This document shows positions 43,903 through 64,000 of a stretch of DNA of 64,000 nucleotides, piece by piece. Numbering within the stretch: the stretch's first letter is position 1; each line of letters begins with the position of its first letter. The notes below the pieces were generated by a model, which did no database searches, had not been told where the DNA came from, and saw nothing but the letters and a program-made list of their open reading frames with translations. Source of the DNA: Fistulifera solaris (lineage: Eukaryota); contig AP026151.1 of NCBI GenBank assembly GCA_030295235.1, positions 62,001-126,000 on the forward strand. The letters are read 5' to 3'. Made by a program: the position numbers and the translations under genes.

Positions 43903-45511
43903 CTAAGGTCGCGATGCGTTCTGTCGCGCGACGCGAATACACCCTTGAATGTTGAGAAACCAACAAATAATTTGATTCCATGGATTTCCACCGCTAGGAC
44001 ACGGACAGTCCTTCTCCGACACATTATCGATTGGTCGACAGCCTACTTGCGATTGTGTCCCTAGACCAGCCCAGGTATAAACCGCATCAAACATATCTTT
44101 GCTCATGACTGGGCCGACATTGGCTCCACCAGATCCCCCGGCGTGATTTCCCAATGCTATATTTTCTTTAGTCAACAATGCACTCCCGGACATGCCTCCC
44201 GCAGTATCGCAGTAATATCGCAGGTAATGCGCACCATTTGAGCGAGCTGAGAAAAAGATTAAAAAAATAAAATCTGGTTAGTCGGAGAGCTCATCCAAAA
44301 GATTTTTAAGGCAGCTGCACTTACCAGGTGGAGAGCATGGCCCGGAAGTCGTCATTTCACCTCGTCTAAAGTCGTATGGGTATCCGGTGATTGTAATATC
44401 GGCTATTCGAGGGTCAATGACACCGTTAGATGAGCTAACGATACTATCGATTGCAACGTAGCCCACAATATCCCCTGGCTTTGTTGGGAGAGAAATAATA
44501 GAGTTAGACGATGTCGAGATTCGCAACATATCTGTAAGGATCAAATGAAGAGATACGTACGTAAACTTCATCACAGCCCAAATCCGGTCGACTGATTGGC
44601 TTGTATGTGACCACCGCCATATCAAAATATCTGTTTCGCGTCTCTCTATACTCTCCAAAAGCCGTAGCATAATCCACCTCCCACATTCCGAATGGTTCGA
44701 GATGTTGATTAGACTCCGAGTCAAAGTACCGCCCCGGCGCTATCCGGGTGATGGGCATAGGTCTTCCTTCGTTGTAATTCCATACACAGTGCGCCGCCGT
44801 TAAAGCAGAAGTCCGTGAAATCATGGTTGCGGTGCACGAGTTGTTGCCCCACCTATAGTCGCTAGCACCAATGGCTCGAAAAGGGTAGAGAGTCGTATCG
44901 GGGACGGCTGAGCGTGTATCGTTCCCTATGATAATCAGGTTTCGGTTTTTGACAATAAACTCGTATCCATCCGCAAGACCTTTGTATAATGTGGTGGGTC
45001 CCAAAGTTTCGTTGAGTAAGGAATAGCGCGACGCATATTCATAGCCGTCGCTGGTAATCCGAACGTAATGCCGATCGATGCCCGTCTCCTCCACTTCGTA
45101 TTCGTCATCGAAAGCAGACATATTCTCCAAATTCTCTATCTTTTTGGCGTATCGTGTACGCTTTGTAACGAATCGAAACTCTTCATCGGCAAATCGGGTA
45201 ATAGTAGCTTCATCGATGACTTCCGAGTTCATGACAAAAGCCGATTCTTCCAAGAGACTTTCGCAAGGCCCCAGACTATCCAATTCGATGCCCTAAAAGC
45301 CGATGAGTAAGACGAAAAGGTGTGAAAGGCGAACTTCTGCTCGTGAACCTACCTGACACCAGGCCAAACATTCATTTGCGTACGTTAATCCGTCAGATCC
45401 GCAGACGGCCGGTCCCATTACAAGGGCGTCCAAACTACAACCGGCACTACAATTGTAGTCGGCTCGAGCGAGTGTGAATGAAGCGGCGAGTAATGACCCA
45501 ATTCGAATCAT
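43903..45511 (-). CDS. Kazal + glutamyl-endopeptidase-like S1 serine protease, copy A
   Basis: Four exons; introns 45293-45352, 44479-44560, 44247-44324. VCGSDGLTYANEC; RNL-IIIGNDTR; TAAHC, DMAV, CDTAGGMSGS. Confidence 0.9.
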
Positions 45512-46436
45512 GGCTTTCGTTTGTGTGTTGATTATGAGCAAGAGATTTATAAAAGATTAGATAATGAACGAGAAAAGGTTTCTTTCTTCTTTGCTTGTGA
45601 AAATAATGAGGACTTTCATTCCATTTTTGTTATATCTTATTGTCGTGTTTGTCAAGAATTGGCGACTGTCACTTGTTTAGTACACCATCGATATTTTTAG
45701 GTAGAAGGCGAATGTCGCAGACTCTCGCAGATCGCCAAAACCGTGTCGATCTTTTGTGTTGATCACAAAATAATCGGCCAAGGAAGAATACGACCATAAC
45801 AAACAAAATTTGAGATAGCAATGATATGTCATCGCGTCTCTCCGTATGACAGTGGCGTTTTCGTTGTATTTGCATCGTAGCGTCGCTCCTGTGACTTGGA
45901 GCAGAGAGGAATGGCAAACGCAAACCTCCGTATAGTTCTTTCCGAGTTGCACGCCTCATGAGCCAAAGTCATACGATGACGAGTCGTCCATCCTGTGGAC
46001 TGCACTCGTTATGAAATTGAGTCTCCCATACTGTGTTATCTCATTTTTGGAAGCTCGGAACCGCTGAAGGGCGCAGCATTGTGTTGACGTTGAGAGCTTG
46101 GAGTGAATGTGCGAATTAGAAGAATCGACGGACGACGTCGAGTTCTTGACTGACTCCTCGTCTGCTCAAACACAAAAGCAAGCCATCTCCCAGGCAACTA
46201 TTTTTTGGTTAATTTTCGTTATCATACTCAGTAAAAAAGGAGTAGAACTCTATTCGACGTCAACGAGTAATGGAGGAAAGAGCATGTTTTGGCGTCGACA
46301 AAAATTTCGCTTTACTGGTAAAACATCTCGTCAAAGCGACCAGTCTGTTTTCTGTTTCGGAAAATTCTAATCCGCTGGTATAAACACCGTTGTGAGAGTC
46401 ATCCCGGTGACTCAGCACGGTTCGCAATTCAGCACG

Positions 46437-48077
46437 CTACACCCTCGCTTGAAGGGACGCCAAACACGTTGCAAGGTTGCGGATCCAGCAACGAACGCGA
46501 CTTCTTCGATTGTTGGTGTATTGCGCGCAAGGACAGGAGGTGGGTCGCAACTGGCAATTGAGTGGTTCTTGATTGGCTAGTCCGGCAGTTTGATAAACAA
46601 AATCAAAGTTGATTCGGCTGAACATCACCGCACCATTGGAACTACCAAACCCCATATTGTGAACGCCTAAAATTTGATTTTTGAGTCGAAAGCACTGCAG
46701 ATCCGCTGCTCCCTCCTTCTGTATCACAGTAGTGGAGAATGTAGTTGGGACCATAGCTTTGAGCTTTGAAAAGTAACAAAGAACGTAAGCGAAAACAGCA
46801 GAGCGAGCTAAAAGCGAAGCGATGCTGTACGTACGGGGAGCCGAGCAAAGACCCGAAGTGACCATCTGTTGATTGAAATCGTAAGGATAACCCGTTAAAG
46901 TCATGGTTTGTAATCGCGTATCGGTTACTGATGTATCGGTTCCTGCAACTAGGTCAATGCCCAGGTAGCCGACAATGTCACCCGGCTGTCGTATCAACGA
47001 AAGATACAGTGGAAAAAGCGTCCAAGTGAGAAGAGGCGTTCCATTTAGTCATCCATCACTTGTGCTCAGGAGCAATTGATACTTACGTAAACCTGGGTAT
47101 TGTCACGGCAGGTATAACGTGTGTCGGTGCGCGGCTTGAAAGTAACGACGGCGAGATCCGCCGTCCTGGTCCTGCCATCGATGTATTCTTGCTTCACGGT
47201 GACGTAGTCGACGTCCCAGGTGCCAAACGGTTCCGCAGTGTTGTCGGCCTGCGTAGGATCGATGTAACGAGCCGGTGCTATCCGTGTCATGGGTCTCCAG
47301 CTCCTGGTACTATAATTGTAGGTACAGTGCCCTGCTGTGAGAGCCGATCGGCGCGAGATCATGGTTCCTGTGCATGACGATGGTTGGATGAGATCCAATG
47401 CTCCAATGGTGCGATAGGGAAAAACTGTAGTGTTTGTTATCACAGAGCGAGTGTCATCCCCGATGACGTCCAATGCCCTGTGTCGAAGATTGGTTGAAGT
47501 TTCTTGTGCAATACCCTGATATGGCTGAGTTGATGTCACCTTCGTAGGGGTGCTCGCCTTGGAAATAAATTTGTAGCCCTCGTGAGTCAAACGCACAAGA
47601 ATCTCTGTGGCGGGTACTTGAAGGGGAGAAAAGATATTGGACTCGTCCTCTTCCGATCCTTCTTCTATGATCGGTTCTGTCGAAAATTCGATTTCCTTTG
47701 TAACGAAACGAAAGTTTTCTTTCGCAAACCGATTCATTATTGCACGCGTAATAACTTCCGCGTTTCCAGAGAAATCAGGCATTGTTAATCTATCGGCATC
47801 TCCCGAGCACGGTCCAGAGGTAAATTTTTTGATGCCCTGAAGTTGACGACACGAGTGTTAGGACCGCTAACGACCGCATAGCCGTCACGAGACCACTTAC
47901 TTGACACGAGGCAACGCACCCGTTTACATAAGTAAGCAGGTCTTCGCCACACACTGGACCTCCCATAATAGCAGTATCCAAAGAGCATCCAGCATCGCAG
48001 TTGTATTGTGCAGCAACGCTGGCAAAACAAGAAGCGACGATAAGATATGATGCAATTATGTTCGAGAGTTTCAACAT
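46437..48077 (-). CDS. Kazal + glutamyl-endopeptidase-like S1 serine protease, copy B
   Basis: Introns 47837-47900, 46986-47086, 46764-46834. RAL-DVIGDDTR; TAGHC, DLAV, CDTEGGSSGS. One A-run frameshift at ~46680. Confidence 0.88.
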
Positions 48078-49003
48078 CTTCGGCGTTTCCTTTATGTTTC
48101 GAACTTTCTTTTGACTGAATTGTTGGCTTTCACTTTGCGGACAAAGCGCGTCCAAATCTTACGACAAGTACTCCGTAGTTCAAATGAGTGTTTTCGAGCG
48201 CCAATGACATGGCCTCGATAATGAGGACGAGAAAATTCACATTTTTGGTTTTTCCGTTGCGCTGTCATCACGAATAGATAGAAAATTTTGTACAGAAAGT
48301 CTTCCGAAGAATAATGATCCGGCATTCCAACGGCTTTCAAATAGAGAGAAACAGCGTTAAATATTGAATTACATAAAGTGTCTAATTGCTAAGTACACCA
48401 AGGAAATTACTCTAAGAGAGTTCGTGGTAAATAATGACTCAAAGTGACCCACAAAGTGGAACATCGGGTCACATCGTAATAACACAGGTGTCCAATCAGA
48501 TGCAACGTTTGCCTTTTCGTGCACCTTTTGATTTTTGATTTCGCGAACGCAAAAACATAATGAGAGAATTCATTCGGTCGTCTTTTGTTATTCAAGTGAG
48601 TCGGGAGAGGATAATAATCGTTTGAAATTCTCTAATAAAGCATTTGTAGGTTTGATGTCTCCTAGATGCGCTGCTGGCGTGACTTTTGCTAACGGTAGAA
48701 TCATCAAGACATCGATCACTTGTTGCTGTTGCCCAAGCTGAAGCTAGCAAGGGCCGATCCATACAAAAGTGACAGCTTTACTAAAGCGCAAAGCTATGGG
48801 AAGCAAAGCAGATAAAGCCAATTGACCACAGCATGTCTTTTTTGTTTCCATTACCCAGATACGGACTCAGAAGCGCAGGTCCGTGGTGTAGATTAAAAAT
48901 GTACCTACATTGTGGAGATTGCAAAGTATATTTTAAACGGGCTTAATGATGCTGATTATGAGTTATACACAAGCCTCGTTGGCCAGACGCATAAAGTTGA
49001 CTA

Positions 49004-50593
49004 CTAACGGGCCAAACAAGCACCAAAGTTGCGTAGATTACATAGCAGTCGTGCAATTCTTCTGCTGCCGAACTCTGAACATGTGCAAGTTTGGGGCGCT
49101 TGACTCGTTAGCCCAGCCCAACTGGAAACAATGTCGAAATATTCGGGAGTCAGAACCGTGGCTCCATTGATTGTGCCTGATTGTGTTATCGGATTGTTAT
49201 GCGCTCCATTGTGGACGCCCAACACTATGTTGTCACTCGTCAAAGTTACGGCGCCACTCATCCCGGGTGTCGTGTCACTTTAGAGGTTTCATAGGAACGG
49301 CAGTTGTGCTTTAATGAGAAGCCAGAAATAATCAAAGCTGTTTGGTCGAACCACCACTCCTCACTTACCATGTGTGATAGATATACTTTGGCTTGGTGGA
49401 AAATGCTGCGATAAGAACGAGTCAAAGTCTGAGTAACTTGGAAAATGACCAAGTAATGATGAATACCCTCTCAAAACTTACGTGCAGTGGAACAGAGGCC
49501 TGTTGTGATCATCTTATGTTTCATATCGTATGGGTATCCTGTGATGGTCATGGTCGAGAATCGCGCATCGGTGACGTTTGCATTATCTTCCCCTACACGG
49601 TCAATGGACAAGTATCCGACAAAATCCCCAGGATAGACCGAAAAAATACCCAGAAAACGTCTCCTTCGCTTCTTGAACGTAACCACTCCCATGTCATAAA
49701 TTTCATCGCCTGATTCCTCATATCCCTTAAAGTAATTTGTGTAGTCGACGTCCCAAGTCCCAAAGGGTTCCGTGGTGTTATCACTCTGCTCAGGATTATA
49801 ATAACGACCTGGTGCGAACCGAATAACGTCATAAGGCTTTTTGGCCGCTCTATCGTAAAGGCAATGCGCCGCGGTGATACCAGAGGTCGGACTAATCATG
49901 GTAATCGTGCACCCAGATTCCGAGAAATCGAAATCTAAGCCTCCCATGGTCCGATAGGGAAAGATCGTCGAGTCCGGAACCATCGTCCTCGTGTCTTCTC
50001 CAACCACCACTAATTTTCGCTTGCGAAGACCCGGTTGATTCTCCGCAATACGGCCCTCGTAAGAAGGCGTGGGGCCCTGGATTTTGGCAAATGACTTGAC
50101 TTGGGAAATGAATTTGTATCCCTCACTGGTGACGCGTACGGTATCGAATCCATCCGGCGATAGAGACGATGAAAAGACATTCGAGTTGTGTACGAAATCG
50201 CGAATTGGATTTCTTGAAAAATCGATCTCTTTTGTGACGAATCGGAAACTTTCTTTCGCAAATCGACTCATAATTTCTCGCGTAATTACTTCGGTTTGAC
50301 CCGTAAGGTCCATCTGCTCAACGCGGTCTCCTTCACCCCCACAAGAGCCCGCAGTAAATTTGATGCCCTACACGAACGCGTTAGTACTCGCACGGAAGAA
50401 GCCATGTAACGGCAATGACACTTACTTGACAAAGCGCGAGACATCCGTTGGCGTAACTGATTCCATCGGCTCCGCAAACAGGTTGCCCCATGACGGTTGG
50501 ATCGAGACTGCAACCCGCATCGCAATTGTATTGTGCCGCTGCACGAGCGATCGCAAGGAGGAGAAGAAGTAAAGCGTTCCACATGTTGCGCAT
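49004..50593 (-). CDS. Kazal + glutamyl-endopeptidase-like S1 serine protease, copy C
   Basis: Introns 50368-50425, 49406-49481, 49278-49368 (37-nt exon between the last two). RKL-VVVGEDTR; TAAHC, DMGV, CDTTPGMSGA. Confidence 0.88.
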
Positions 50594-51298
50594 TCGATTG
50601 GAAGATCTTGGCTTTCGAAAACGCAAACGCCTTTTGGAAATGACAGCACCTTCCGATGCAACGCTGAAGAACATTTCCAACTGAAGTCATTCGGCGGGGC
50701 GGGCTCGGAGCAATTCCGAGGGCTTTATACAAAACACGTCTAAAAAAATTCGTGTGGTCTTGTCTGTACTTGACCTTGTTATCTAAAAAGTCCGCAAAGA
50801 CACTAAACCATTTTTGGCAAGATCCGTAAGTACTAAGTACCTAAAATTATAGTAAATATAAAACGCGCTAACCGACCATTTCCCTTTAATAAAATGATCA
50901 ACGGCTGCAAAGTATCGAGCGGGGAGAGAGAAGCTTTTTTTCGCTATGACCTCATTTCATTTTTTTTCTGTTTTCAAACTGGAAACTAAAACCTCGTTCT
51001 ACTCCTCCGAAATCCATGTTCCGAGAAAAAAAATAGCCGTTACTTGGATCGATCATCATTCGAGCTTCGAACGCGTGCTTTGTATGTGCAATATGTGATG
51101 ACGGAGGAAAGGTTTGTTTGTCTCATGTGAAGAGGCGTGCAAAGGAGCCATTTGAAATCGACGATGTAAAACCAAAGATACGCTAAAGTTTTGAAGGTCT
51201 TTATTAAACGTGTACTTGTTAATTGGAAAACAAAAACAATGATGACGTTACTATAACACTCTCTACAATCGCGGATGTGAGACACACACACTAGCTAT

Positions 51299-51927
51299 GC
51301 CCACAATTTTCTGGACACGTGAAAAAAGCACCTCCCCACATTTTCTGGACACGTGAAAAAGCACCTCCCCACATTTTCTGGACACGTGAAAAAAGCACTT
51401 GCCCACATTTTCTGGAGAAGTGAAAAAAGCACATCCCCACATTTTCTGGACACGTGAAAAATCATTTCCCCACATTTTCTAGACACGTGAAAAAGCGCAT
51501 CTCCACATTTTTTGGCCACGTCAAACATGTACTTGCCCACATTTTCTGGAAAGTCAACAATGCACATGCCCACCTTTTTCTGGAGACGTGAAAAAAGCAC
51601 ATGCCCACATTTTCTGGACTCGTGAAAAACACATTCCCACATTTTCTGGAGAAGTGAAAAAGCACTTGCCCACATTTCCTGGACACGTGAAAATAACGCT
51701 TCCCCACATTTTCTGGAGACGTGAAAAAACACATCCCCACATTTTCTGGACACGTGAAAAACACCTCCCCACATTTTCTGGAAACGTGAAAACAACCCAC
51801 CCCCACATTTTCTAAAAGTGAAAAAAAACGCTCGCCCACATTTCCTGGACAAGTGAAAGTAACGCTTGCCCATATTTTCTGGATACGTGAAATAACCCTC
51901 GCCCACATTTTCTGGAGACGTGAAAAT
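51299..51927. repeat. Minisatellite, ~19 copies of ~32-34 bp (cccacattttctggacacgtgaaaaaagcac)
   Basis: Direct inspection; the short ORFs called here in several frames are repeat artefacts. Confidence 0.95.
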
Positions 51928-52165
51928 AAAACATTGTTAAGAATAGTCCTTTTCGTAAATTTTTTAGAAAAAAGTGTCTAATTCTGCTTCAAACGCTAGA
52001 GTAGAAGGTCGTTAGGTGCATATTGCAAATACGCTTTCTAGTTTTGATAGATGTTTTGGTGAATTAACGCGCGAATATCTCATGTGAGTCTAGTGTACTT
52101 GTACAGTTGCCACTTGAGGCTAGAGCTTCGAAGGGCATGATATGCAGCAAGATTTAGCGGATTTA

Positions 52166-53792
52166 TCAAATTCGGTTCGCGCTTTCCAGTGCCAGCCGCA
52201 AACAACCTCGAAAGTTTATAAACCAACAAATTGCTCGCTGTGACGGATTGGTTTGTGATGAACAGGGACACGCGTTTGATGCTGAGCATACGAATGCCCG
52301 TTGGTCTGCTAGTCCTGCCCAAGTATATACGGAATCAAAGAGTTGGTCCTTTAGAACAGCACCTCCATTGCGACTGGATACCCAATTTCCATGAGCATGG
52401 ACACCGACAGCAACATTGTTCGGGAGTAAGAAGCTACTTCCGCTCATCCCCGCAACCGTATCGCAAAAATGCCAAATATAGTGTGAACCGCCTGACAATG
52501 CTATCATATAATATGAAAGGATGAGCGTCATATATTCCGACATTATCTCGCATCTTGTCGCTAGCTTCCCACTTACCTTCGCGAGAACACGCGTTAGAGG
52601 TGACCATCTTTCCAAAATAGTCGTTCGGATAGCCAGTAACAGTGAGAGAGGCCAAGCGCGGATCATTCACGGCAGAACTTGTTCCTAAGACTCGATCGAT
52701 TCCAACAAATCCAACGACGTCGCCCGGCTTTTACCAGGAAGACAGAGCCAAATTGAGGCGACAGCACTTCATTGAATTGCGAAAGCACAGAGATATACTT
52801 ACGTAGACGTTGGAGCAACCGAGATCGGGGCGATTGGATGGCTTAAACGTGACGACAGCCATGTCAAACTGTTCGTCTTTTTCTTTGTAATTCTGGAATG
52901 TTGTCGTATAATCCACATCCCACGTTCCATAAGGATCTATCATACTACCAGTCGAAGCATCCACGTATCGTCCTGGAGCCACCTTCATCATCGGAAGCGG
53001 CTCGTTGGTGCTCGTTCGCCAAACACAATGACCGGCTGTTAACGCTGAAGTCCGAGAAATCATTGTAACTGTGCAGATGCTGGTCCCTTTGGTATAATTA
53101 TAGTCCGCGGAACCGATGGCACGAAAGGGAAAAGCGGTCGTATCTGGAACAATGCTACGAGTGTCTGTTCCGATGACAATTAAATTTCGATCACGAAGAA
53201 GCTTTCGGTCAACTTGACCAGCAAGACCCTCGTTCGCAGCACTGGAACCTGGAGTACCAGTTGATTGTGTGGATTCCAACGGAGCCATGAACTCGTAACC
53301 TTCGCTAGTAATACGCAAAAAGTGGGAACGAAGAGGGACGCCGAGACGATCCACCAAGTCGGATTCTACGACATCTTCGTAATCATCGAGCTGTGTAGCA
53401 AATTTGACTCGCTTTGTCACAAAACGAAAGCTCTCGTGCGCGAACCGATTCATCACATCCATTGTTATCACATCAGCACTTCCTGGAAAATCAAACCCAG
53501 ATAATCGGCTTTCATTCATTCCGTCACATGACCCGTAATTGAATTTAGTGACGCCCTGTACAACAGTCAGATCAACCAGTCGTTAGTCTCTTTGTCTGCT
53601 GCATCATGCAATGCAACACTTTTGTGCACTTACTTGACACCACGCCACACACGCATTTTGATAAGTAAAGCCCTCGTCGTCGCATACCGATGGACCCATT
53701 ATGCTTCCATCGAGAGAACATCCTACGTTACAATCATACTGCGACGCCACGCAGGTAAAGGACGACAGAATTAACACTAGTGTCTTTCGCAT
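52166..53792 (-). CDS. Kazal + glutamyl-endopeptidase-like S1 serine protease, copy D
   Basis: Introns 53556-53633, 52728-52802, 52501-52576. RNL-IVIGTDTR; TAGHC, DMAV, CDTVAGMSGS. Confidence 0.9.
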
Positions 53793-55002
53793 TTGTCTCT
53801 TCAGGATTTTTGAACGTTAAATGAAATCAATATAGACACAAAGTTGTTTCACCGATCGGCGGATGATAATGACGGCATTGTTGCGTACTGGTAGGGAATA
53901 AAGGTCTTTGCTTCCGCTTTTGAGACGTCGGCGCGGGCCGAAAATTTCTATTTATTGGTGACACGTCTTAAATACCCAAAATTACGAAATACAAAAGTGT
54001 TGAGTTATTTCGTTCGCGGTTCATCAACTTGTTTCCCAATTAAATTGTTCTGTGAAAATTGTGGACAGTATACTTTTTATTGTAGTCAATGTCCTTATTT
54101 ACTTTATTTATCTTTGTCGTCCGTCGTCCTGTCGTCCATCATCCATCATCCGTCATCCGTCATCCGCATTGAACATGGAGGATGGAGGGAGAATTTGACG
54201 TGCACCTTCCAATCCCAACGGAAATCTATCGGATGTCGTTCTAGAGCGGAGAACGAATGAAAGTCCACCATCATTGGTGGAGAAATTTTCAGGAACTGCA
54301 ATCCACTAGGGTGGCGTCCGTCATCAATCAGACAGCAAACATTTGAAAGACGAGAACGTTGCTTGCCGATTACAACGTCTAGATCGGCAAATGCACTTCT
54401 CTCGTGGCGAACTGCGCATTTTCCGATGATGACGGCAATAACAACAGAATCTAATCTCTAGAGAATCATAGACAAAAAGTCGAGTTCCACCTTCCTTGGG
54501 ATCGCATTTACCTCTCTGTGAGCCTTTATGAGAAAAATATTTCGTGAGAGGGAGAATCGAATCAAGTTTATTGGACGAACACACCAATGATAGTCGAAAG
54601 GTCTTTTCGCAAATTTAAGGAGAACAAAAGATACAGCTAAAATGATGTTGGTGGACCTTCACTTGTGTTTTTCTTCTTAAACATAAGGTATCACTTGCGA
54701 AGATGATGGCAACGAGGGCGACAACCATCGAGCATTCATAAAAGGTGCAGAAAATGCCCTTCAACGCAGTGGAAGTCGATGTAACAATTGAAATCAGTTG
54801 CTGTTATCTAAAATGTGCAAGTAGGTAAATGCTACTGAGAAGAGTTTAGGCTTTCCAGTTTAACTTTTTTTGATTGCGATGCGAGGTGGTAGGCATCTCT
54901 CGGGTAAGCTACTGGTCAATAGATATCCATGAAGTGAAAACACTTACCAGTATCGTTTGTGCGATAAAACGACACAAAAGTATCTTAGTTCGCAGATTAT
55001 TT

Positions 55003-57189
55003 TTACATCAGTCGTCTCTTCTTGCCACCTTTCCCACTTGAGCTTTTCTTGGAGCTACTACTATACTTTTTCTGTTTCTTCTTTTTGCCGCCCTTGCCTT
55101 TACCGGAATACGGTTGTGATACCGGAGCTGCGACTGGATTTGTCGGATTCCTGACAGGTTGGGTCGGAAGAATATCCGCAGTCGGCCCAACAAAAGTGGG
55201 TGATGTCACGGGGCTGCCGACGGGCAATGCTTGAGGCACTGTTGCAGGCGGCACAACGGGTCTCGGAACGGGGATGATCTCAGGCACGGGAGCAGGTAGA
55301 GCAACGGGAATGGCGACGGGCGCCGCCTGAGGCACTGGTGCGGGAGGCACAACGGGTCTGGGAACGGGCACGATCTCTGACACAGGAGGAGGAAGCAGAA
55401 CCGGGCTAGGAACGGGCACGATCTGAGGAACCGGAGCCGGGAGCACAATGGGGCTGATGACTTTCACTGGCTGGGCCACTGGAGCGGGCTGTGGCGCTGC
55501 GACTGGTAGAACGATAGGGCTGATGACTTTCACTGGCTGAGACACTGGAGCGGGTTCTGTTTCACGTGTTGGACCAGTAACCTGCGAAGGGGTTGGCGCC
55601 TGCAGAACAATTGGAGACAGTCCTGGTGAAGGTTGTCTTTGCGGAGCTGATACAGGTTTTTTGAACCGGAGGGGCAACTGGTTGTACAACCGGTGATAAT
55701 ACCTCAGTTCGAGAACACAAGCTTTGACCTTTCCCATGTCCAGCCCATTCATAGATAGATGCATACAAGCGAGTCGTCATCATCACAGCCCCATTCATGC
55801 TTGTTGTTGCGGTCTGAACTCCATGGGTATGAACTCCTAAAGCGATGTTTCCCTCCACGATGACACTAGATCCGGAATTTCCTCCGACGGTGTCACAGTA
55901 GTGATTTATATAGTTAGCCCTGCGACTTTCAGGAGCTAGAATGGAAATCGGAGGGTGTTTTTGTGAGTTTGTGGCGACAAGGAATAATTATAGTACATAG
56001 AGTTAGCGTTATTCGACTTACCTCGATCGCACGGACCGGAGGTCGCCATTTGTCGATTATAGTCGTACGGATAGCCGGTGATCACCATCGTGTTCAAGCG
56101 GCTATCCACAACTCGTCCATCCACTTCAGCCGGACGATCAAGTCCGATATGGCCTAAAGCGTCTCCGGGCTAAGATAGAAAGAGAGTCTGAGTGAGAGAG
56201 TGGTTTTGGACGTCCTTTGATAATCCAGAGGTACTTACGTATAGCTCCTTACAGGTAGAAAGATTGTTGCGGATACGTGGTTTATAGGTCACAACCGCAA
56301 TGTCGAAATTAGTTTGTCCAAGCTGCTGAAAGTTCCCAAACAACGAAACGTAATCCACTTCCCACGTTCCAAAGGGTTCCGCCGTCCCGTCTCTCTTTGT
56401 TGCATCACGAAATCTTGCCGGAGCAATCGCAGTCATATTCATAGGCCCCTTCCTGTTCGTATTCCAGACACAATGTCCTGCCGTCAGTGCCGAGGTTCGG
56501 CTGATGAGCGTTAGAGTACAGCCTCCTTCTCCCCACCAATAATCAGCATTAGCTATAGTACGGAACGGGTAACGAGTTGTATCCGCAACGGGAACTCTCG
56601 AGTCTTGTCCGATCAAGACCAACTCTCTACGAGTCGCATTGCCCTCGCCGTCGTCATCCAGTCCGTTTTCGCCTAAAAGCCCTAGTTGCGGCGCTACTGG
56701 CTGGAGGAGCGACTCCTCTTCAAACATCAATGTCGTTCGATACTCGTATCCTTCGGGCGTGAATCGATAATTGGGAATAAACTGGTCATCCATTTCCTCC
56801 AGGAAACCATCGTCCGTTTCATTGATCATTTGCTCCTCGAGCAGGTAGCGGATATCTTCTTCGAAATTAGTCGATGGTAGACGCTTTCCAACGAAACGAT
56901 AATCCGAAAAACGTGTCATGGTACTCATGGGAATAACTTGCGGATCCGACGAGACGAAGGACTCTTGGAAAGGATCTTCTCCTTCGCAGACACCCAAACT
57001 AGCAACGGTAATGTTTTGACATACCGCCAAACATTCGTTTAGATACGTGAGATTGTCATCTCCACACACTGGAGGTCCCATAAGGCTAGCATCCAAGCTG
57101 CAGCCGACGTTGCAATCATATGTTGTCTGTGACGCAACGATCGAAAGAACAGAGGCCAACGCCACGAGATGTAGGAGAGCTTCTTTCAT
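55003..57189 (-). CDS. Kazal + glutamyl-endopeptidase-like protease, copy E, with Pro/Val-rich stalk and Lys/Ser/Gly tail
   Basis: ATG 57189; introns 56170-56238 and 55936-56021. REL-VLIGQDSR; TAGHC, DIAV, CDTVGGNSGS. An A-run frameshift at ~55657-55662 enters ORF 55003-55764. Confidence 0.85.
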
Positions 57190-57672
57190 GATGCTCTTCA
57201 CTGGAATTCTGATTGTTCTTTTGCGTCTTTGCTTTTCTTGATGGTTGCTTTGGTTTATGTCTGTATTGTTGGAAATTGCTGACACTTCTTTCGAACGATC
57301 GGAGAAAGCATTTTCGAAAATGTGGACTTGAAATCTTTCTTTCGCACCGCCTAACGCTCCAAATTCTCGCCTCCATAAATGTGTATCCTATCAATTCAGT
57401 ACAAGTTAATCAGCATTTAGGAGATTTCCTTCAACCGCGAATATTCTTTTACGCAGTTAGCGATAAGCGTCTTCCGTTGTGTACCGCATGAGACATTTGT
57501 CTGTCCGTTGGCTCGATGGGAGGGTGAAAAAGCTCCGCCAAGGCGCCAAGGCTCGTCCGCCGTCGCGCGTGTGCACGAAAAGAACAACAACAACAACACG
57601 CAGCGACGAAAGGGCAACAATCCTTGGCAATCGTCCCATTCTTTAATTCTTCTTTCTATTATCGAGACTATA

Positions 57673-59138
57673 ATGCCTTTAAAAATCTTTCTGTCGATCT
57701 ATAGGCATTCAATTGTACTGCTTGTCTTCTTTCTGGCGCTCTCCAGCAGTCAATCTTCATCTTCTTATGACTGTGAAAACGAGGGATGCCCATGGACTGT
57801 TGCTCCTCCTGTTTGCGGTGTGAACGGCGTAACCTATGCAAATGAGTGTTTAGCTTTTGCCAAGTGAGTAGTTCCGCTTCCTTCACTAAGCCTGTCATGA
57901 TGCTCTTGCTGTATCGTGTGGAGGATGCTTTGTCATCGAAACAAGGATTTGCAGTTTTTTCTTTCTCTGCCCGTACTTAATCTTACTTCTTTTCCTCGCA
58001 GAATATACCAATTGCTTCCATCGGCCCTTGTTCCGGCGATGGCGATATTGCTTCTATTCCTTATGACGATGGCACGAATGCGACTATATCAATCATGCAG
58101 CGGTTTCGTAACGAGAATTTTATGCTGACAGGAAGAAGGAATCTAGATGATCTCGCACTTCCAGAAAACAATCCAACGTTTCATTTAGAGGAGCGAAAAG
58201 ACGATTCGATTCTCGAACAACAACCCTTGTTGTGGAGTCGTTTTACGTCAGATGGTTATGTCTATACGGCGGTTGTGACAGACGAGGATAACAGACGATT
58301 CTTACAAGAGTTGCAAAACATTTACGAGTCACGTAGCAATCGCTCCTTGATTGTCATAGGTCCTGACACACGAAAGGTTGTCACCGACAACCAGGATCGC
58401 TTGCCTTACTCTCCCATTGTTGAACTAGACTACGGGTTTGGGAATTCAGAGGGTGGATGTACTGGGACATTAATTGGGAAAAGTTCGGTTCTCACGGCGG
58501 CCCATTGTTTGTACAATTTCGTGGAGAAACAATTCACTAATCCCTTACGCATGGCTCCTGGTCGGTATCGTCAAGGAACCAATACAATTGAGCCTCACGG
58601 ACTCTTCGGCTTTCGCTATTCGACCTTTTTCACTACGTATCAATCGACAGGAGACGCACGCTACGATATGGGCGTCGCTACGTACAATGCAAACAGCCAA
58701 GGCAAATTTCCAGGTCAACTCGCAGGTACGCTTTGCTTGGCAGAAGCCGCGACACAAAAGCTTACGGCAGAAACTATTTTAGCTGGCTATCCGATGGATT
58801 TTCTTGACGGAAATCTAGCGGAATCTCGGGGTTGCAAGTGGAGTCTTGAGACTGGGATCATTTCACATGACTGTGATACAACAGGTGGACAATCCGGGGC
58901 CCCTATCGTCTCCTCGATGTCCGAAATGCTGGGAATTCACATCGGATATAATCCCAATACTTTTATCAACATTGCGCTCGGTTGGAACAATGCTACTTAC
59001 AGTTCGGTGTATGCATGGGCTCCCGATGCCAGGAGTTGTCCGGATCGAAGATTTTGTAGCAACTGCCCTGCCCTCGAGGGTCCTTTGAGGCGTACACTGT
59101 GTTCTCTGGTGTGCCTCTTGTTCGGTAATGCGGAATGA
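57673..59138 (+). CDS. Kazal + glutamyl-endopeptidase-like S1 serine protease, copy F (most divergent)
   Basis: Kazal exon needs one extra T at 57855-57858 to read AFCQ; intron 57864-58001. RSL-IVIGPDTR; CTGTLIG..VLTAAHC, DMGV, CDTTGGQSGAP. Confidence 0.88.
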
Positions 59139-59323
59139 TACTTCGAGTATGCTGTTGCATTCTTAACAACCTTGGATGAAGGAAATCAACGCACACCAGT
59201 AGAGAAACGCCGAATCAGTGGTCGTTTTATCGCGTGTTGAAGACTTTATTGATTACGCTAAACGCATCCTAGTGTTTAATCTCAAGAGAGATGATGGTGC
59301 AATAGATGGTTCACTGGAGCTGA

Positions 59324-60097
59324 TCATGCCAAGTCGTCACGATCTTTTCGCGTATCCTTTGGCTGAATCTTTTCGAGTAACTTGCTACAAAATTTCCAGG
59401 CTTGAACTGAGGCTGTTTGTAAGGAACCCACGGCTCGTTGTAGTTGCTGCTGCTGTCGGAGAGACTGGTCGTGTGAATAAAGCAATTGACGCAACGTATG
59501 TTGAAGTCGTTGCATCTCATGCTGCAGCATCATAACATGATTGTCTTGACGGTGCAACCGATCGTGTAGCAAGGCGATTTGGCTTTCCTGAGTATGATGA
59601 AGTTGAAGATATAGTTCGCGAAGCTGTGACTGAATGAGCTCCATTGCTTGAGCTTGACTTGCAGATGCAGCGTTGTTCAACGGCGCGAATCGATTCCCGG
59701 ACTCGTCGTGGCCCTGAGACCCATAGAATGGTTCAGCGATCCCTGTGCACATGCGACTTTGGTTTGAGATACTCTGGGACGGCACAGCGTATCTATGATG
59801 CGTGAACCTTTGCTGCAGTGGAATCGGACTGACAGTCACTTCTTCTTCAAGTTTGCTTTTGGGTGCATCAATACTTGCCGCGGAGTCTTTGTTCTTTGAT
59901 TCGCGGTTGACAATCTTTGCGCGGGAACGTTTGCCGGCTATCGCCGTTGCCCCTTGCGGCTCCTCATCGGATGATTCCAAGAGGTAAATTGTCGCTTTGC
60001 GCTTTCGTTGATTGTTCTCCGTCTCGTTCGCCTTTTTCTGCTCGGAAATGAAATCCAGATCTTTCTTGTTGTCAGCAATGCTGCGTGAAGTATTCAT
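59324..60097 (-). CDS. Hypothetical protein with basic (NLS-like) patches and a Gln-rich coiled coil
   Basis: 257-aa ATG ORF; QRKRK and GKRSR motifs; Q/L heptads in the C-terminal third. Confidence 0.55.
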   Translation of the reverse strand: MNTSRSIADNKKDLDFISEQKKANETENNQRKRKATIYLLESSDEEPQGATAIAGKRSRAKIVNRESKNKDSAASIDAPKSKLEEEVTVSPIPLQQRFTHHRYAVPSQSISNQSRMCTGIAEPFYGSQGHDESGNRFAPLNNAASASQAQAMELIQSQLRELYLQLHHTQESQIALLHDRLHRQDNHVMMLQHEMQRLQHTLRQLLYSHDQSLRQQQQLQRAVGSLQTASVQAWKFCSKLLEKIQPKDTRKDRDDLA

Positions 60098-60785
60098 GAT
60101 CGGCTTGTGCGGGTTTAATCAAATGACAGTGAGGAGATGTTATGCTGCAAACAAAAACTATTACGTAGCAACAAAAGTGAGGGAAAGGACACATGAGAAG
60201 CCCCCTGCAAGAATACACCGGATCGTATCATTCTTTTTTGCGCACGGAGGATTCTTCGACGCGATGTTGCAGAGAGGGTGATTGATTCGCCGAGTGTCAC
60301 GCAATCCCGCACGTATCAACATACCTGGACGTTTCGTCTCTTATTTCCTTTTCCTCTGTTTTGAAAAGGTATGTTAATATGAGTAACGGCGATATGGAAT
60401 GCAACAAACTTTTGTCGAGCGATCGTAGCGAACGAATAAAGATGACAATGAAAGAAGAAGGCGATCGAACTGATTGCGTACCAGGTATCCCGTTGACATG
60501 CATGCGTGTATGAACAAACTCGGTGCGACGATGATCTCGTTCCGTTATATCGGTTACCAGTACCATGCGCGACACACAAAGGTACTACGCACGCAAAAGA
60601 GCAACTAGAGAGGTCTCTAGAGTATGTAAACGCAAATGCTAGGCGTCATTGGGGAATAATTCGTTAAAAATTCTACTGTTTAATCTCTACAGAGGGACAG
60701 CGCGATGGACGATTAGGCCTATAATGCCTTCTCTTTCTCTGTGTCAAAGAGGCTTGCAGAAGGGAAAAATGATTTGTACCTGGTA

Positions 60786-62244
60786 GGGGACCTACGGATG
60801 TCCCCACTCATGACGATACGTGATCTGTCCTCCCATCGGTTATTTCTGTCCGTCCCACCGTCCGTACGCGCCAGCAGGACCATGAAACCGTTAACAACAG
60901 TACACAAAAAAGCACTGTTCTATCTTCATAGGTTTACCGCGAGAGTCATTCCAAGTCGGAGAACTCAAATTCTTTCGCATTATCGTATGTGGCAACTTTA
61001 TTAATCGTTCCTTTTCGCGAAAAATATGATGCAACACCCAACTTTCAATTCGACAAACAAAGTTAAGTATGTTTGAAGATCTTTCGATGGATCGCAAGTT
61101 TCGAAAACGACATCACAAAGCGGAAAACAGCGGTGGCAGACGTTCCTTCACGGTCGTTTAGACTGACTCTGGATGATTTATCTACAAAGTCATGTAATTC
61201 TGATCACCGTAAAGTCTAAACAATCACTTTTTCCCTTTCAATTTGGTCCTTTCCCAAGGAAGGACTCGTCGTTTACTAAGATAATTTTATTGAGAAATTA
61301 GCGTTCGTGACCGGACTCGTCCTTTACGTAGGGAAGATGTAGGGAAAATTTATTGAGAAAACCAGCGTTCGTGACCGGACTCGTCCTTTACGAAGGGAAA
61401 ATGTAGGGAAAAGTAATTGAGAAAACTAGCGTTCGTGACCGGACTCGTCCGTTACGAAGGGAAAATGTAGGGAAAATTAATTGAGAAATTAGCGTTCGTG
61501 ACCGGACTCGTCCTTTACGAAGGGTAAATAATGATTAAGGACGTATAAAAATGTAGGGAAAGTTTATTGAGAAAACTAGACTACTTGTACGTACATCGAA
61601 AAATAGTGAGAGAAGTAACTTTCGTTGTTGGATTCCTTAGAGTTTGGTCTCGTTACCGAAGCGAATATTGTTGCAAGCATCTCCTATAACAATTAAATAA
61701 CAATATCACTTTCATGAAGAAACGAGACTAATCCTCATCAACTTATTGCAACGAAATTATGTCGCTATATAAACTATTCTTTATTACCTCGCTCGCCTTG
61801 TTTCGTCGTCGGCAAGCCCGATTTGTTGCGCTTGACTGGGACGGCTTCCTAAAAGTACCAAGATTGATTTGGACTTTGAGATAAAGGCACATCGTAATTT
61901 GCGGTGTAATTAATTGAACGACTGACTACTCTTTTTTCGTTTTCGACGATGACAGAAATTGTGACATCATCTGGTAGCTTCATTGCTGCTTCAATATATG
62001 CTGGAACCGTTGCTTTTGGACTCTGATTAATTCCTTTTCGTGTTGCCCATACCGTCACGTTGGGCGGAGCATTGTCTCCGACTTCGCAAAAAAAAAAAGA
62101 TGTGTGCTATTGCACGGTGTGAAGGGAGAGCCGTTGAGAGGCCGGCTGGCGTGGCCGGCAGGCGTTTGCTTATTCGCTTTCGAGTTACACGTGGAAGTGA
62201 CGTCATGGGGGTATCGTCATGAGTGGGGACATCCGTAGGTCCCC
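60786..62244. mobile_element. Non-autonomous TIR DNA transposon (1459 bp) with 34-bp perfect TIRs and flanking TA
   Basis: 60786-60819 GGGGACCTACGGATGTCCCCACTCATGACGATAC is the exact reverse complement of 62211-62244; TA at 60784-60785 and 62245-62246; no recognisable transposase. Confidence 0.85.
61262..61579. repeat. ~64-bp tandem repeat (4 copies plus partials) inside the TIR element
   Basis: gcgttcgtgaccggactcgtcc at 61301, 61365, 61429 and 61492. Confidence 0.95.
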
Positions 62245-62699
62245 TAAAGTCGTTGCACGGTTGAGTGCTATTTGTTTGAAGAAAAATGAATGAACTCGGT
62301 GCGACGGTCATTCCTACGATGTGACACACACATTGTGGGCGTATGCGAAAAACTTAGACGTGGATACTGAAAGCCCAATGACAACACGAAAGAACACAAC
62401 TACGTACAGTATTTCTATATTTATCAATACCGTTTGACGCTGGATCGCTACTGGAAAATTGAAGTTTGATAAAGAAATAATAGGAAATAGTATCAGGTTT
62501 TTATCGGAAGAGTTTTCGTCACAGTAGACAGTTGTCGTGCGAATTTGTCCGAAGTCCGAAATTTTGAAACTCAACGGTCACAACGGCGCACCTCGGGGAC
62601 AAAAAGAAAAACGAAAAAATATTGCCACCCAAGAAGGAAAACACAACAACAATAGGATTCGAGAGCCTTGCTTTGCTAACAACCACTTCCTCAATCAAC

Positions 62700-64000
62700 A
62701 TGACTTGGTATTCGTTTCTCAGTATATCAATAGCTATAATAGCAGTGAGTTTGCTCGCACCAAGCAGTCTCACTGTGGTCGTTTCAGCACAAGAAGTACA
62801 ACAACCGACCTACGATTGTCGAACCGGCTGTAGTTTGGATGCCAACATCAATGGACCTCCTGTGTGCGGCATCGATCAACTGACTTATTTGAATGAATGT
62901 TTAGCGGTGTGTCAAAACGTGGCGATCGTACATTACGGTCCGTGCAATCAAGATGGTTCGATTTCCGAAAGTGAGCTCTCCACCGATTCAGAGGTAGTTA
63001 CGATGGAGCTCATGACACGATTTATATCACGAGGATATCGTTTCGTGTCGAAAAACACCAGATTTCTGAGTCAGCCGGAGAATATAGAAGAGTCGGTTGT
63101 TGTGAGTGCGGCCGAAAGCGCGAGTGTTGGGGCTGTGGAAGACATTGAGCCGTATTTCGTTTTATTCACTCCCGATGGATATGAATACGCTTATCGTGCC
63201 ACCGACTCGTTGCCTTCGTATCCTGGACCGACACCGTTGTATATGGGAATGCAACAGCTACGGGAACGTAACTTAGCTATCATCGGTGCCGACACGCGAA
63301 CGGCCATCACGAATACTCGAGCCTATCCGTATCGGACGATCGGCGAGGCCGACTTTGGTACGCTCGAAGGCGGCTGCACGTTAACCATGATTTCGCGCAA
63401 TGCAGCAATCACAGCTGGGCACTGTGTTTACAATTTTCAAAACAAAGTTCCTATTCAAATGAAACGCATTGCGCCAGGGAGATATAGAGACAGTTCCGGA
63501 AACACGGTAGAACCCTTTGGTACCTGGGAAGTGGAAACGATGCAAACTTTTGGGCAATTCAAAGCACAGGGAAATATGACATTCGATTTGGCAGTAGTGA
63601 CGTTTGCACCAGAGACACGCGACAACATGCAGAATTGTCCATACGTCTATCCTGGAGATGTCGTTGGGTTCCTTTCATTAGATAGAGCTCAAACCAGCGG
63701 AGGGCGCGTCAGTGATAGTCGACTCGCGTCTTCCACTATTACCGGATACCCTGCAGACTTTCCGAATGGTGTAATGGCAACATCAGGAACGTGCTCCAAA
63801 GGTAGGTCATATTTTCGGGGACGAGTACGTTTAGCTTTGACCGTAATACCGATATCCTCATTCTTCGCATTCTCTCAAGCATGGCATTCTGATCACGAAC
63901 ATTTTGCCTACCATTACTGCGATACGTTTGGTGGGAATTCCGGGTCAGCAGTGATCACGAGTGGAAATGTTGTAATAGGAGAGCACGCGTATGGCTTCTA
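62700..64000 (+). CDS. Kazal + glutamyl-endopeptidase-like S1 serine protease, copy G (3' truncated by the window; absent from the ORF track)
   Basis: Hand translation from ATG 62700: MTWYSFLSISIAII..YDCRTGCSLDANINGPPVCGIDQLTYLNECLAVCQ..RNL-AIIGADTR..TAGHC..DLAV; intron 63802-63879; CDTFGGNSGS..GEHAYG. Confidence 0.9.
   Translation, partial: MTWYSFLSISIAIIAVSLLAPSSLTVVVSAQEVQQPTYDCRTGCSLDANINGPPVCGIDQLTYLNECLAVCQNVAIVHYGPCNQDGSISESELSTDSEVVTMELMTRFISRGYRFVSKNTRFLSQPENIEESVVVSAAESASVGAVEDIEPYFVLFTPDGYEYAYRATDSLPSYPGPTPLYMGMQQLRERNLAIIGADTRTAITNTRAYPYRTIGEADFGTLEGGCTLTMISRNAAITAGHCVYNFQNKVPIQMKRIAPGRYRDSSGNTVEPFGTWEVETMQTFGQFKAQGNMTFDLAVVTFAPETRDNMQNCPYVYPGDVVGFLSLDRAQTSGGRVSDSRLASSTITGYPADFPNGVMATSGTCSKGRSYFRGRVRLALTVIPISSFFAFSQAWHSDHEHFAYHYCDTFGGNSGSAVITSGNVVIGEHAYGF

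Follow-up and report, generated by a model that had tools for sequence, protein, structure and literature searches.

How is a protease with bacterial-type relatives switched on once it is encoded by a diatom? The question is raised by a 64,000-nucleotide stretch of DNA from Fistulifera solaris (GenBank assembly GCA_030295235.1, contig AP026151.1, positions 62,001 to 126,000 of the forward strand; hereafter the window), in which seven paralogous genes stand in tandem from 43.9 kb to the window end, five of them (A to E) on the minus strand and two (F and G) on the plus strand. This is nuclear DNA of a diatom, with Fistulifera solaris as the closest named relative, and the gene F product is 84% identical to P0002, a protein that carries this species name at NCBI. 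In all seven genes the parts come in one order: the N-terminus is hydrophobic and is followed by a Kazal-like domain with six cysteines, a propeptide, a junction that reads R-x-L and a trypsin-fold protease. R-x-L is also described as the signal at which diatoms process their silaffins, silacidins, cingulins, frustulins, silicanin-1, SAPs and SiMat7-like proteins (PMC4557024, PMC5525289, PMC5647440, PMC5501833), in agreement with the original prediction for this locus, which had named RXL as the processing motif of diatom cell-wall precursors. The cleavage is attributed there to an endopeptidase that was still unidentified in 2017 (PMC5525289), and RXL sites are reported only from biosilica-associated proteins (PMC5647440). 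Here, we argue from sequence comparison and structure models that a host endoprotease of the RXL type, or one of the same specificity, may activate the seven zymogens by cutting after the leucine, a reading to which we assign a probability of roughly 55%.

The motif stands immediately before mature residue 1 in all seven window copies. The original prediction listed the junctions as RNL/IIIG, RAL/DVIG, RKL/VVVG, RNL/IVIG, REL/VLIG, RSL/IVIG and RNL/AIIG for A to G (the slash marks the proposed cut) and placed them exactly at the activation site. All seven are present as described and the placement is borne out: in the alignment with the mature Bacillus intermedius chain (1p3c), residue 1 falls on the gene F residue right after the leucine, and an ungapped alignment with V8 protease (chain residue 7 to query residue 92) sets V8 residue 1 on the same position. 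The prediction had also quoted S-V-I-G as the mature start of the Bacillus enzyme, which holds for B. licheniformis, but the solved B. intermedius chain begins VVIG. Across 13 aligned sequences (the seven window copies and six homologues; mean column identity 35%) the arginine and the leucine are invariant and the roughly 20 columns that precede R-x-L show no conservation, just as the predicted combination of two fixed residues and a variable propeptide would have it. The junction arginine is written with five codons across the seven copies (CGA, AGG, AGA, CGC and CGT) and the leucine with three (CTG, TTG and TTA). Beyond the junction, the seven exon translations examined hold seven RxL triplets in 2103 residues, and when all six frames of the window were scanned for the pattern, 12 matches came up, namely the seven junctions and five unrelated chance matches. 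The nearest homologues outside the window carry the motif in 8 of 8 cases (RSL in P0002 to P0005, RNL in P0017, RDL in P0018, RAL in P0019 and RNL in P0020). By these comparisons, the R-x-L at the junction is not a chance occurrence and the motif is under selection. In the gene F lineage, a second conserved motif, RRNL, lies early in the propeptide (region of window positions 58137-58148) in 5 of 5 sequences (F and P0002 to P0005) and is a possible extra cleavage site between the Kazal-like domain and the remaining propeptide.

How far the trait reaches was seen from an exhaustive profile search, which returned 10,753 proteins at E up to 0.001 and from which the best 150 representatives were examined together with earlier hits; each representative stands for a cluster at 50% identity and not for a species. 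A tree was built from 175 mature domains, after 12 rows with fewer than 150 residues of the mature part had been dropped, and it splits at its midpoint into 56 and 119 rows. The 119-row half carries the Kazal-like domain and propeptide, whereas no row of the 56-row half had a detected Kazal motif and one matched the regular expression for the propeptide motifs. Junctions in the Kazal/propeptide half read RxL/ in 70 rows, RxLx/ in 19, RxLxx/ in 2, E/ in 6, basic-x-hydrophobic in 2 and something else in the remaining 20. The sequence logo of this clade has arginine at P3 in 64% and leucine at P1 (the residue before the cut) in 61%, with arginine at P4 in 27%, and the flanking positions P2 and P4 to P10 are unconstrained. 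RxL occurs in the same proteins at a background of 0.0040 per position (196 in 49,562), and composition predicts 0.0034.

None of the 56 rows in the other half has RxL at the junction. This half we call bacterial-type from a few named members only (Listeria, Enterococcus and the AE/SVIG group), and it includes one EukProt transcript. Among named bacterial genomes, RxL was found at 0 of 7 readable junctions from 18 loci. Both results favour the original prediction, which had proposed to check whether bacterial homologues lack RxL at this position. P1 in the 56-row half is E in 25%, K in 19% and R in 16%, and many bacterial-type relatives have glutamate there (AE/SVIG type), which may allow them to activate themselves. 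Glutamate at P1 is also found within the Kazal clade, twice as R-x-E (P0054 and P0172), and this alternation of leucine and glutamate at P1 is as expected for a cleavage site.

A rewiring of activation that is specific to diatoms and to this locus is not supported, given that the trait is shared across a large Kazal/propeptide clade of the family and probably extends beyond diatoms. A well-supported subclade of Ala/Gly-rich sequences (P0100, P0110, P0113, P0174 and relatives) has the shifted register R-x-L-x/ in 15 of 20 rows, and an Atlas look-up gave Chlorophyta as the commonest phylum of its nearest cluster, which serves as a lead only. P0110 is fused to a protein with a protease-associated (PA) domain and multiple membrane passes, perhaps through a gene-model error. 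Because the register of this perhaps chlorophyte subclade is shifted, the motif may track the secretory convertase of each lineage and not the silica machinery as such.

The same observations bear on the possibility that a host protease other than the silaffin convertase does the cutting, for example a Golgi subtilase of the site-1-protease (S1P) type, a plasmepsin V/ASP5-like aspartic protease or a protease that acts outside the cell once the zymogen has been secreted, so that the likeness to biosilica RXL sites would be coincidental or a sign of some wider specificity among algae. The clade is a large one that probably extends past the diatoms, its R-x-L-x/ subclade fits the S1P consensus (arginine at P4, hydrophobic P2), and P4 is arginine in the 27% noted above. 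The diatom-type members, however, place the arginine at P3 and the leucine at P1, just like the diatom sites described in PMC4557024 and PMC5525289, and among the window copies P4 is basic in C and E only. We regard this alternative as unlikely.

The surroundings of the motif were assessed in AlphaFold2 models of P0038 and the gene F product, and in both the motif ends a low-confidence linker that runs from a well-folded propeptide to the mature domain. For P0038 the predicted local distance difference test (pLDDT) score is below 50 at residues 168-180, RHL occupies residues 180-182 and order begins at about 181; in gene F the corresponding values are below 50 at residues 108-114, RSL at 114-116 and order from about 121. 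Such a position speaks to the idea that R and L are kept for a reason other than cleavage, such as linker docking, zymogen folding or a sorting signal, with the N-terminus made elsewhere or by unspecific trimming. The homologue P0020, which is likely a pseudo-protease, has a tyrosine for the catalytic histidine, has lost the serine motif and still has RNL at its junction, which shows that R-x-L can be retained in a protein without catalytic function; moreover, the case for cleavage is itself drawn from sequences and models. Against this, the motif adjoins the residue that corresponds by homology to the N-terminus of the mature chain in solved relatives, it is predicted to lie in a linker and not in a packed element, its P1 alternates in relatives with glutamate, the self-cleavage residue, and the positions around R and L are free to vary. 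A role without cleavage hence seems quite improbable.

Could the enzymes make the cut themselves? By sequence, the nearest solved relatives of the protease domain are V8 protease (E 1.8e-12), exfoliative toxin C and 1p3c (E 7.9e-11), and a Foldseek search with the P0038 model again gave 1p3c as the best match (E 1.9e-14, template modelling (TM) score 0.85 by target), followed by exfoliative toxins, V8 (TM 0.75 by target), Esp and Spl. The modelled domain thus has the double beta-barrel of chymotrypsin-like proteases, with S1B members as its closest matches. Pfam Trypsin and Trypsin_2 match gene F with 32.5 bits each, and three of the seven partial open reading frames (ORFs) have no Pfam match at E 0.01. 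The catalytic histidine, aspartate and serine are intact in all seven copies (TA[AG]HC, [FYA]D[MLI][AG]V and G.SG[SA]; in B after correction of a homopolymer at 46678), and so are a threonine five residues before and a histidine 15 residues after the catalytic serine; V8 and 1p3c have the same two residues at the aligned positions. According to structural studies of V8, Esp and the enzyme of B. intermedius, this threonine and histidine, with the free N-terminal amine, form a Glu-binding S1 site. In enzymes of the V8/glutamyl-endopeptidase type (S1B), as established for the same three, activity requires a free alpha-amino group on mature residue 1, which also helps to bind the side chain of the substrate glutamate.

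Hence, by their aligned residues the enzymes should cut after glutamate and not after leucine, and would need another protease to free residue 1; self-cleavage after leucine is unlikely because the residues of Glu specificity are kept. That the enzymes, or some of the paralogues, nevertheless cut after the leucine of R-x-L and activate each other, which would make the family itself the RXL endopeptidase, could draw on the non-Glu specificities of other S1B enzymes (the Spl proteases) and on the room that seven diverged paralogues have to split roles. A leucine at the presumed reactive-site P1 of the Kazal-like domain in A to E and G would likewise suit the inhibition of a Leu-specific enzyme. 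The threonine and histidine conserved in every copy point the other way, as do the members of the same clade with glutamate at P1, which share these S1 residues wherever a crude regular-expression scan found the serine motif (a qualitative comparison, in which many sequences were fragments or were missed). We therefore consider such mutual activation very unlikely.

The Kazal-like domains have the six-cysteine pattern and the PVCG..G.TY.N.C..C core in all seven copies, and that of P0038 is modelled with pLDDT >90. Pfam scores are 22.4 bits for Kazal_2 (cut-off 22.8) and 21.0 bits for Kazal_1 (cut-off 21) in gene E, and 18.2 and 16.9 bits, respectively, in gene G. The presumed reactive-site P1, two residues past the second cysteine, is leucine in A to E and G (GCSLD) and tryptophan in F (GCPW); in gene E the site lies within window positions 57040-57120. 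With leucine or tryptophan there instead of glutamate, we judged it unlikely that the domain is a canonical inhibitor of its own protease.

Taken together, the selected motif, the predicted flexibility of the linker and the retained Glu-type S1 residues make a separate activating protease the most economical reading. In the mechanism we propose, a signal peptide would take each zymogen into the endoplasmic reticulum (ER), and the Kazal-like domain and the folded propeptide (~100-150 residues) would stay joined to the protease through a flexible linker that ends in R-x-L. The enzyme would stay inactive until a cut falls exactly behind the leucine, because the free amino group of residue 1 is required. 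Bacterial relatives with glutamate at P1 would activate themselves, whereas in the algal clade P1 would have become leucine, with arginine at P3, so that the diatom RXL protease, or one of like specificity, would remove the Kazal-like domain and propeptide and turn the enzyme on. Activation would then run in two steps, as a cascade along the secretory or extracellular route. The claim of the original prediction that activation has been handed to the host RXL convertase is thus supported in part, by the lack of RxL in bacterial-type relatives, the selection on the motif and the conserved S1 residues; the trait itself characterises the family and is not particular to this locus.

Several points weigh against this reading. 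All its support comes from sequences and models, from which we infer the cleavage, its agent and its place, and the Glu specificity in particular is read from aligned residues only. PMC5525289 describes the RXL protease as unidentified, so its wider specificity cannot be compared with the sites found here. Known RXL sites lie soon after the signal peptide or between low-complexity repeats, whereas the motif in the present family is preceded by folded domains and lies 110-190 residues into the chain. Of the 119 clade representatives, 49 lack the exact register, and the RxLx/ subclade is probably green-algal by the Atlas lead, so the motif may reflect a general algal secretory protease and not a silica-protein convertase. 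The search profile was built from RxL-bearing sequences with the R and L columns included, which slightly favours RxL among the best 150 of 10,753. Finally, a cell-wall-like feature is present only in gene E.

Gene E (55003..57189, minus strand) is composed of a putative signal peptide, the Kazal-like domain, the propeptide, the junction RREL/VLIG (RxL codons 56620-56628), the protease, a linker rich in proline and a Lys/Ser-rich tail with RRLM as its last residues, with introns at 56170-56238 and 55936-56021. The distal part (55003-55764) encodes a Pro-rich region of ~250 residues (about 23% proline) that ends in a Lys/Ser/Gly-rich tail with KXXK-like clusters. In sequence this tail is reminiscent of silaffin repeat units and of silica-targeting lysine clusters, and no other feature hints directly at the cell wall as a destination. 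Silaffin repeat units are Lys/Ser-rich and end in RRIL or RRNL (PMC4557024). A bolder form of the proposal would make the locus the downstream arm of a cell-wall cascade, in which the RXL convertase switches on a set of Glu-specific endopeptidases in the secretory route or the silica deposition pathway, at least E is carried into or onto silica by its tail and the zymogen could serve as a reporter for purifying the RXL protease. The register would then track the convertase of each lineage, with R-x-L/ in the diatom type, R-x-L-x/ in the second subclade and Glu/ for bacterial self-activation. We hold this cascade, taken as a whole, to be a doubtful extension of the simpler host-protease reading.

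Gene models were compared with the contigs of four public runs of the same organism (X1 to X4), none of which is recorded as RNA; X1 supplied a DNA contig, and X2 to X4 contain transcripts, as judged from spliced contigs. Spliced contigs with GT..AG introns from these three runs fall in genes C, E and G, with joints exactly at the previously inferred exon ends, and hence these three genes are transcribed. In gene C, an X3 contig joins 49405 to 49482 across an intron with ends CT..AC (GT..AG on the minus strand), gene E is covered by spliced contigs in X2 and X3, and the gene G joint is seen in X2, X3 and X4. Short contigs of X2 and X4 map to gene D. For A, B and F, no RNA contigs are listed among the X1 to X4 contigs, which says nothing about their expression. 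Single-base differences between the window and the run contigs were seen in T or A homopolymers at 46678, 48838, 55657, 60234, 62088 and other positions, and two of them produce false frameshifts. In gene B, the window has an extra T at 46678 that is missing from the X1 DNA contig, and its omission restores a single frame from HYCDT to the Cys-rich tail; we therefore rejected the idea that B is a pseudogene. In gene E, the letter at 55657 is missing in all four runs, and its omission links the protease to the Pro-rich linker and the tail and, together with splicing, gives a single open frame of 676 amino acids.

The other genes follow the common plan, each with a hydrophobic N-terminus visible on inspection of the sequence (the signal peptides are putative) and with the two conserved propeptide motifs RF..E.F.FV and R.T..G.EY. 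Gene A (43903..45511, minus strand) is delimited by ORFs and tblastn spans with predicted introns, and its junction KNRNL/IIIG has RxL codons at 44936-44944. B (46437..48077; RHRAL/DVIG, codons 47471-47479), C (49004..50593; KRKL/VVVG, codons 50011-50019, intron 49406-49481) and D (52166..53792; RDRNL/IVIG, codons 53181-53189) are on the same strand and have the architecture of A. Between C and D lies a 33-bp minisatellite (51300-51926; 18.7 copies, 79% matches), with a DNA-run depth ~4x that of its neighbours, and it is probably repeated elsewhere in the genome. Gene F (57673..59138, plus strand) is the divergent paralogue, in which a first exon with putative signal peptide and Kazal-like domain is followed by an intron, the propeptide, the protease and the Cys-rich tail; its junction is NRSL/IVIG (codons 58341-58349). 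Gene G (62700..64000, plus strand) continues beyond the window end and has the junction RERNL/AIIG (codons 63267-63275) and an intron at about 63799-63876. A Cys-rich C-terminal tail (C.C ... C ... C; for example window 59060-59135) is conserved in A to D, F and G and in homologues, and is absent from E. In the P0038 model it is confidently predicted as helices that pack against the protease (residues 481-504, with pLDDT of about 90).

The combination of Kazal-like domain, propeptide, S1B protease and Cys-rich tail is apparently an undescribed algal family. Our literature search, outside which most subscription journals fell, found no paper on diatom proteases that are glutamyl-endopeptidase-like or linked to Kazal domains, and none that names the RXL protease. 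Two sources describe a trypsin-like protease of T. pseudonana, Tp9434, that is co-expressed with TpSIL2, and two silica-proteome proteins with serine protease domains (PMC5501833, bioRxiv 10.1101/2021.09.18.460806). In this algal family, to judge from the sequences, the activation residue has changed from the self-cleavable glutamate of bacterial relatives to a host-dependent signal. If so, the RXL motif would be extended from biosilica proteins to the activation of enzymes. An RXL-cutting protease has reportedly been postulated since the first silaffin work, and its known substrates are structural proteins without an easy read-out. A zymogen that should become active only after an exact RXL cut would provide an enzymatic assay, and thereby a possible handle on the diatom RXL protease.

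The RXL-processed biosilica proteins share with the window copies an ER signal peptide (putative here), a pro-region ending in R-x-L and a functional part after the leucine, and the gene E tail adds a Lys/Ser-rich end in RRL. They differ in being structural and mostly of low complexity, with a short pro-region (about 30 residues in Sin1), whereas the substrate here is an enzyme zymogen with a folded pro-region. A language-model feature search placed clusters of the animal protein PRSS23 among those nearest to one clade member (score 0.94), which is a lead only. Convertase-activated systems include metalloproteases with furin sites, plant pectin methylesterases and RALF23 with sites for S1P (SBT6.1), and the RxL-containing export elements PEXEL and TEXEL, which are cut by plasmepsin V and ASP5. 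Like the proposed system, all of these hand activation to a protease of the secretory pathway through a short basic/hydrophobic motif at the border of the pro and mature parts, and in PEXEL and TEXEL the cut also falls after the leucine of R-x-L. In contrast to PEXEL, P2' is here Val or Ile, fixed by the protease fold, and not Glu, Gln or Asp, and no homology is implied; in contrast to S1P sites, the arginine is at P3 and not at P4, except in the RxLx/ subclade. Closest in fold are V8 (SspA), Esp and the glutamyl endopeptidases of B. intermedius and B. licheniformis, which have the same catalytic triad, the same threonine and histidine at S1 and the same mature start xVIG.D.R, and whose zymogens require a precise cut that frees residue 1, as the alignment suggests for the diatom copies. 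The diatom propeptide is unrelated and much longer, with a Kazal-like domain before it and a Cys-rich tail at the C-terminus of the chain, the genes are nuclear and contain introns, and P3 to P1 read R-x-L, where the bacterial-type relatives have Glu, Lys or another residue. V8 and Esp are themselves activated by another protease (aureolysin and SepA, respectively), which is the same logic as we propose for the diatom copies.

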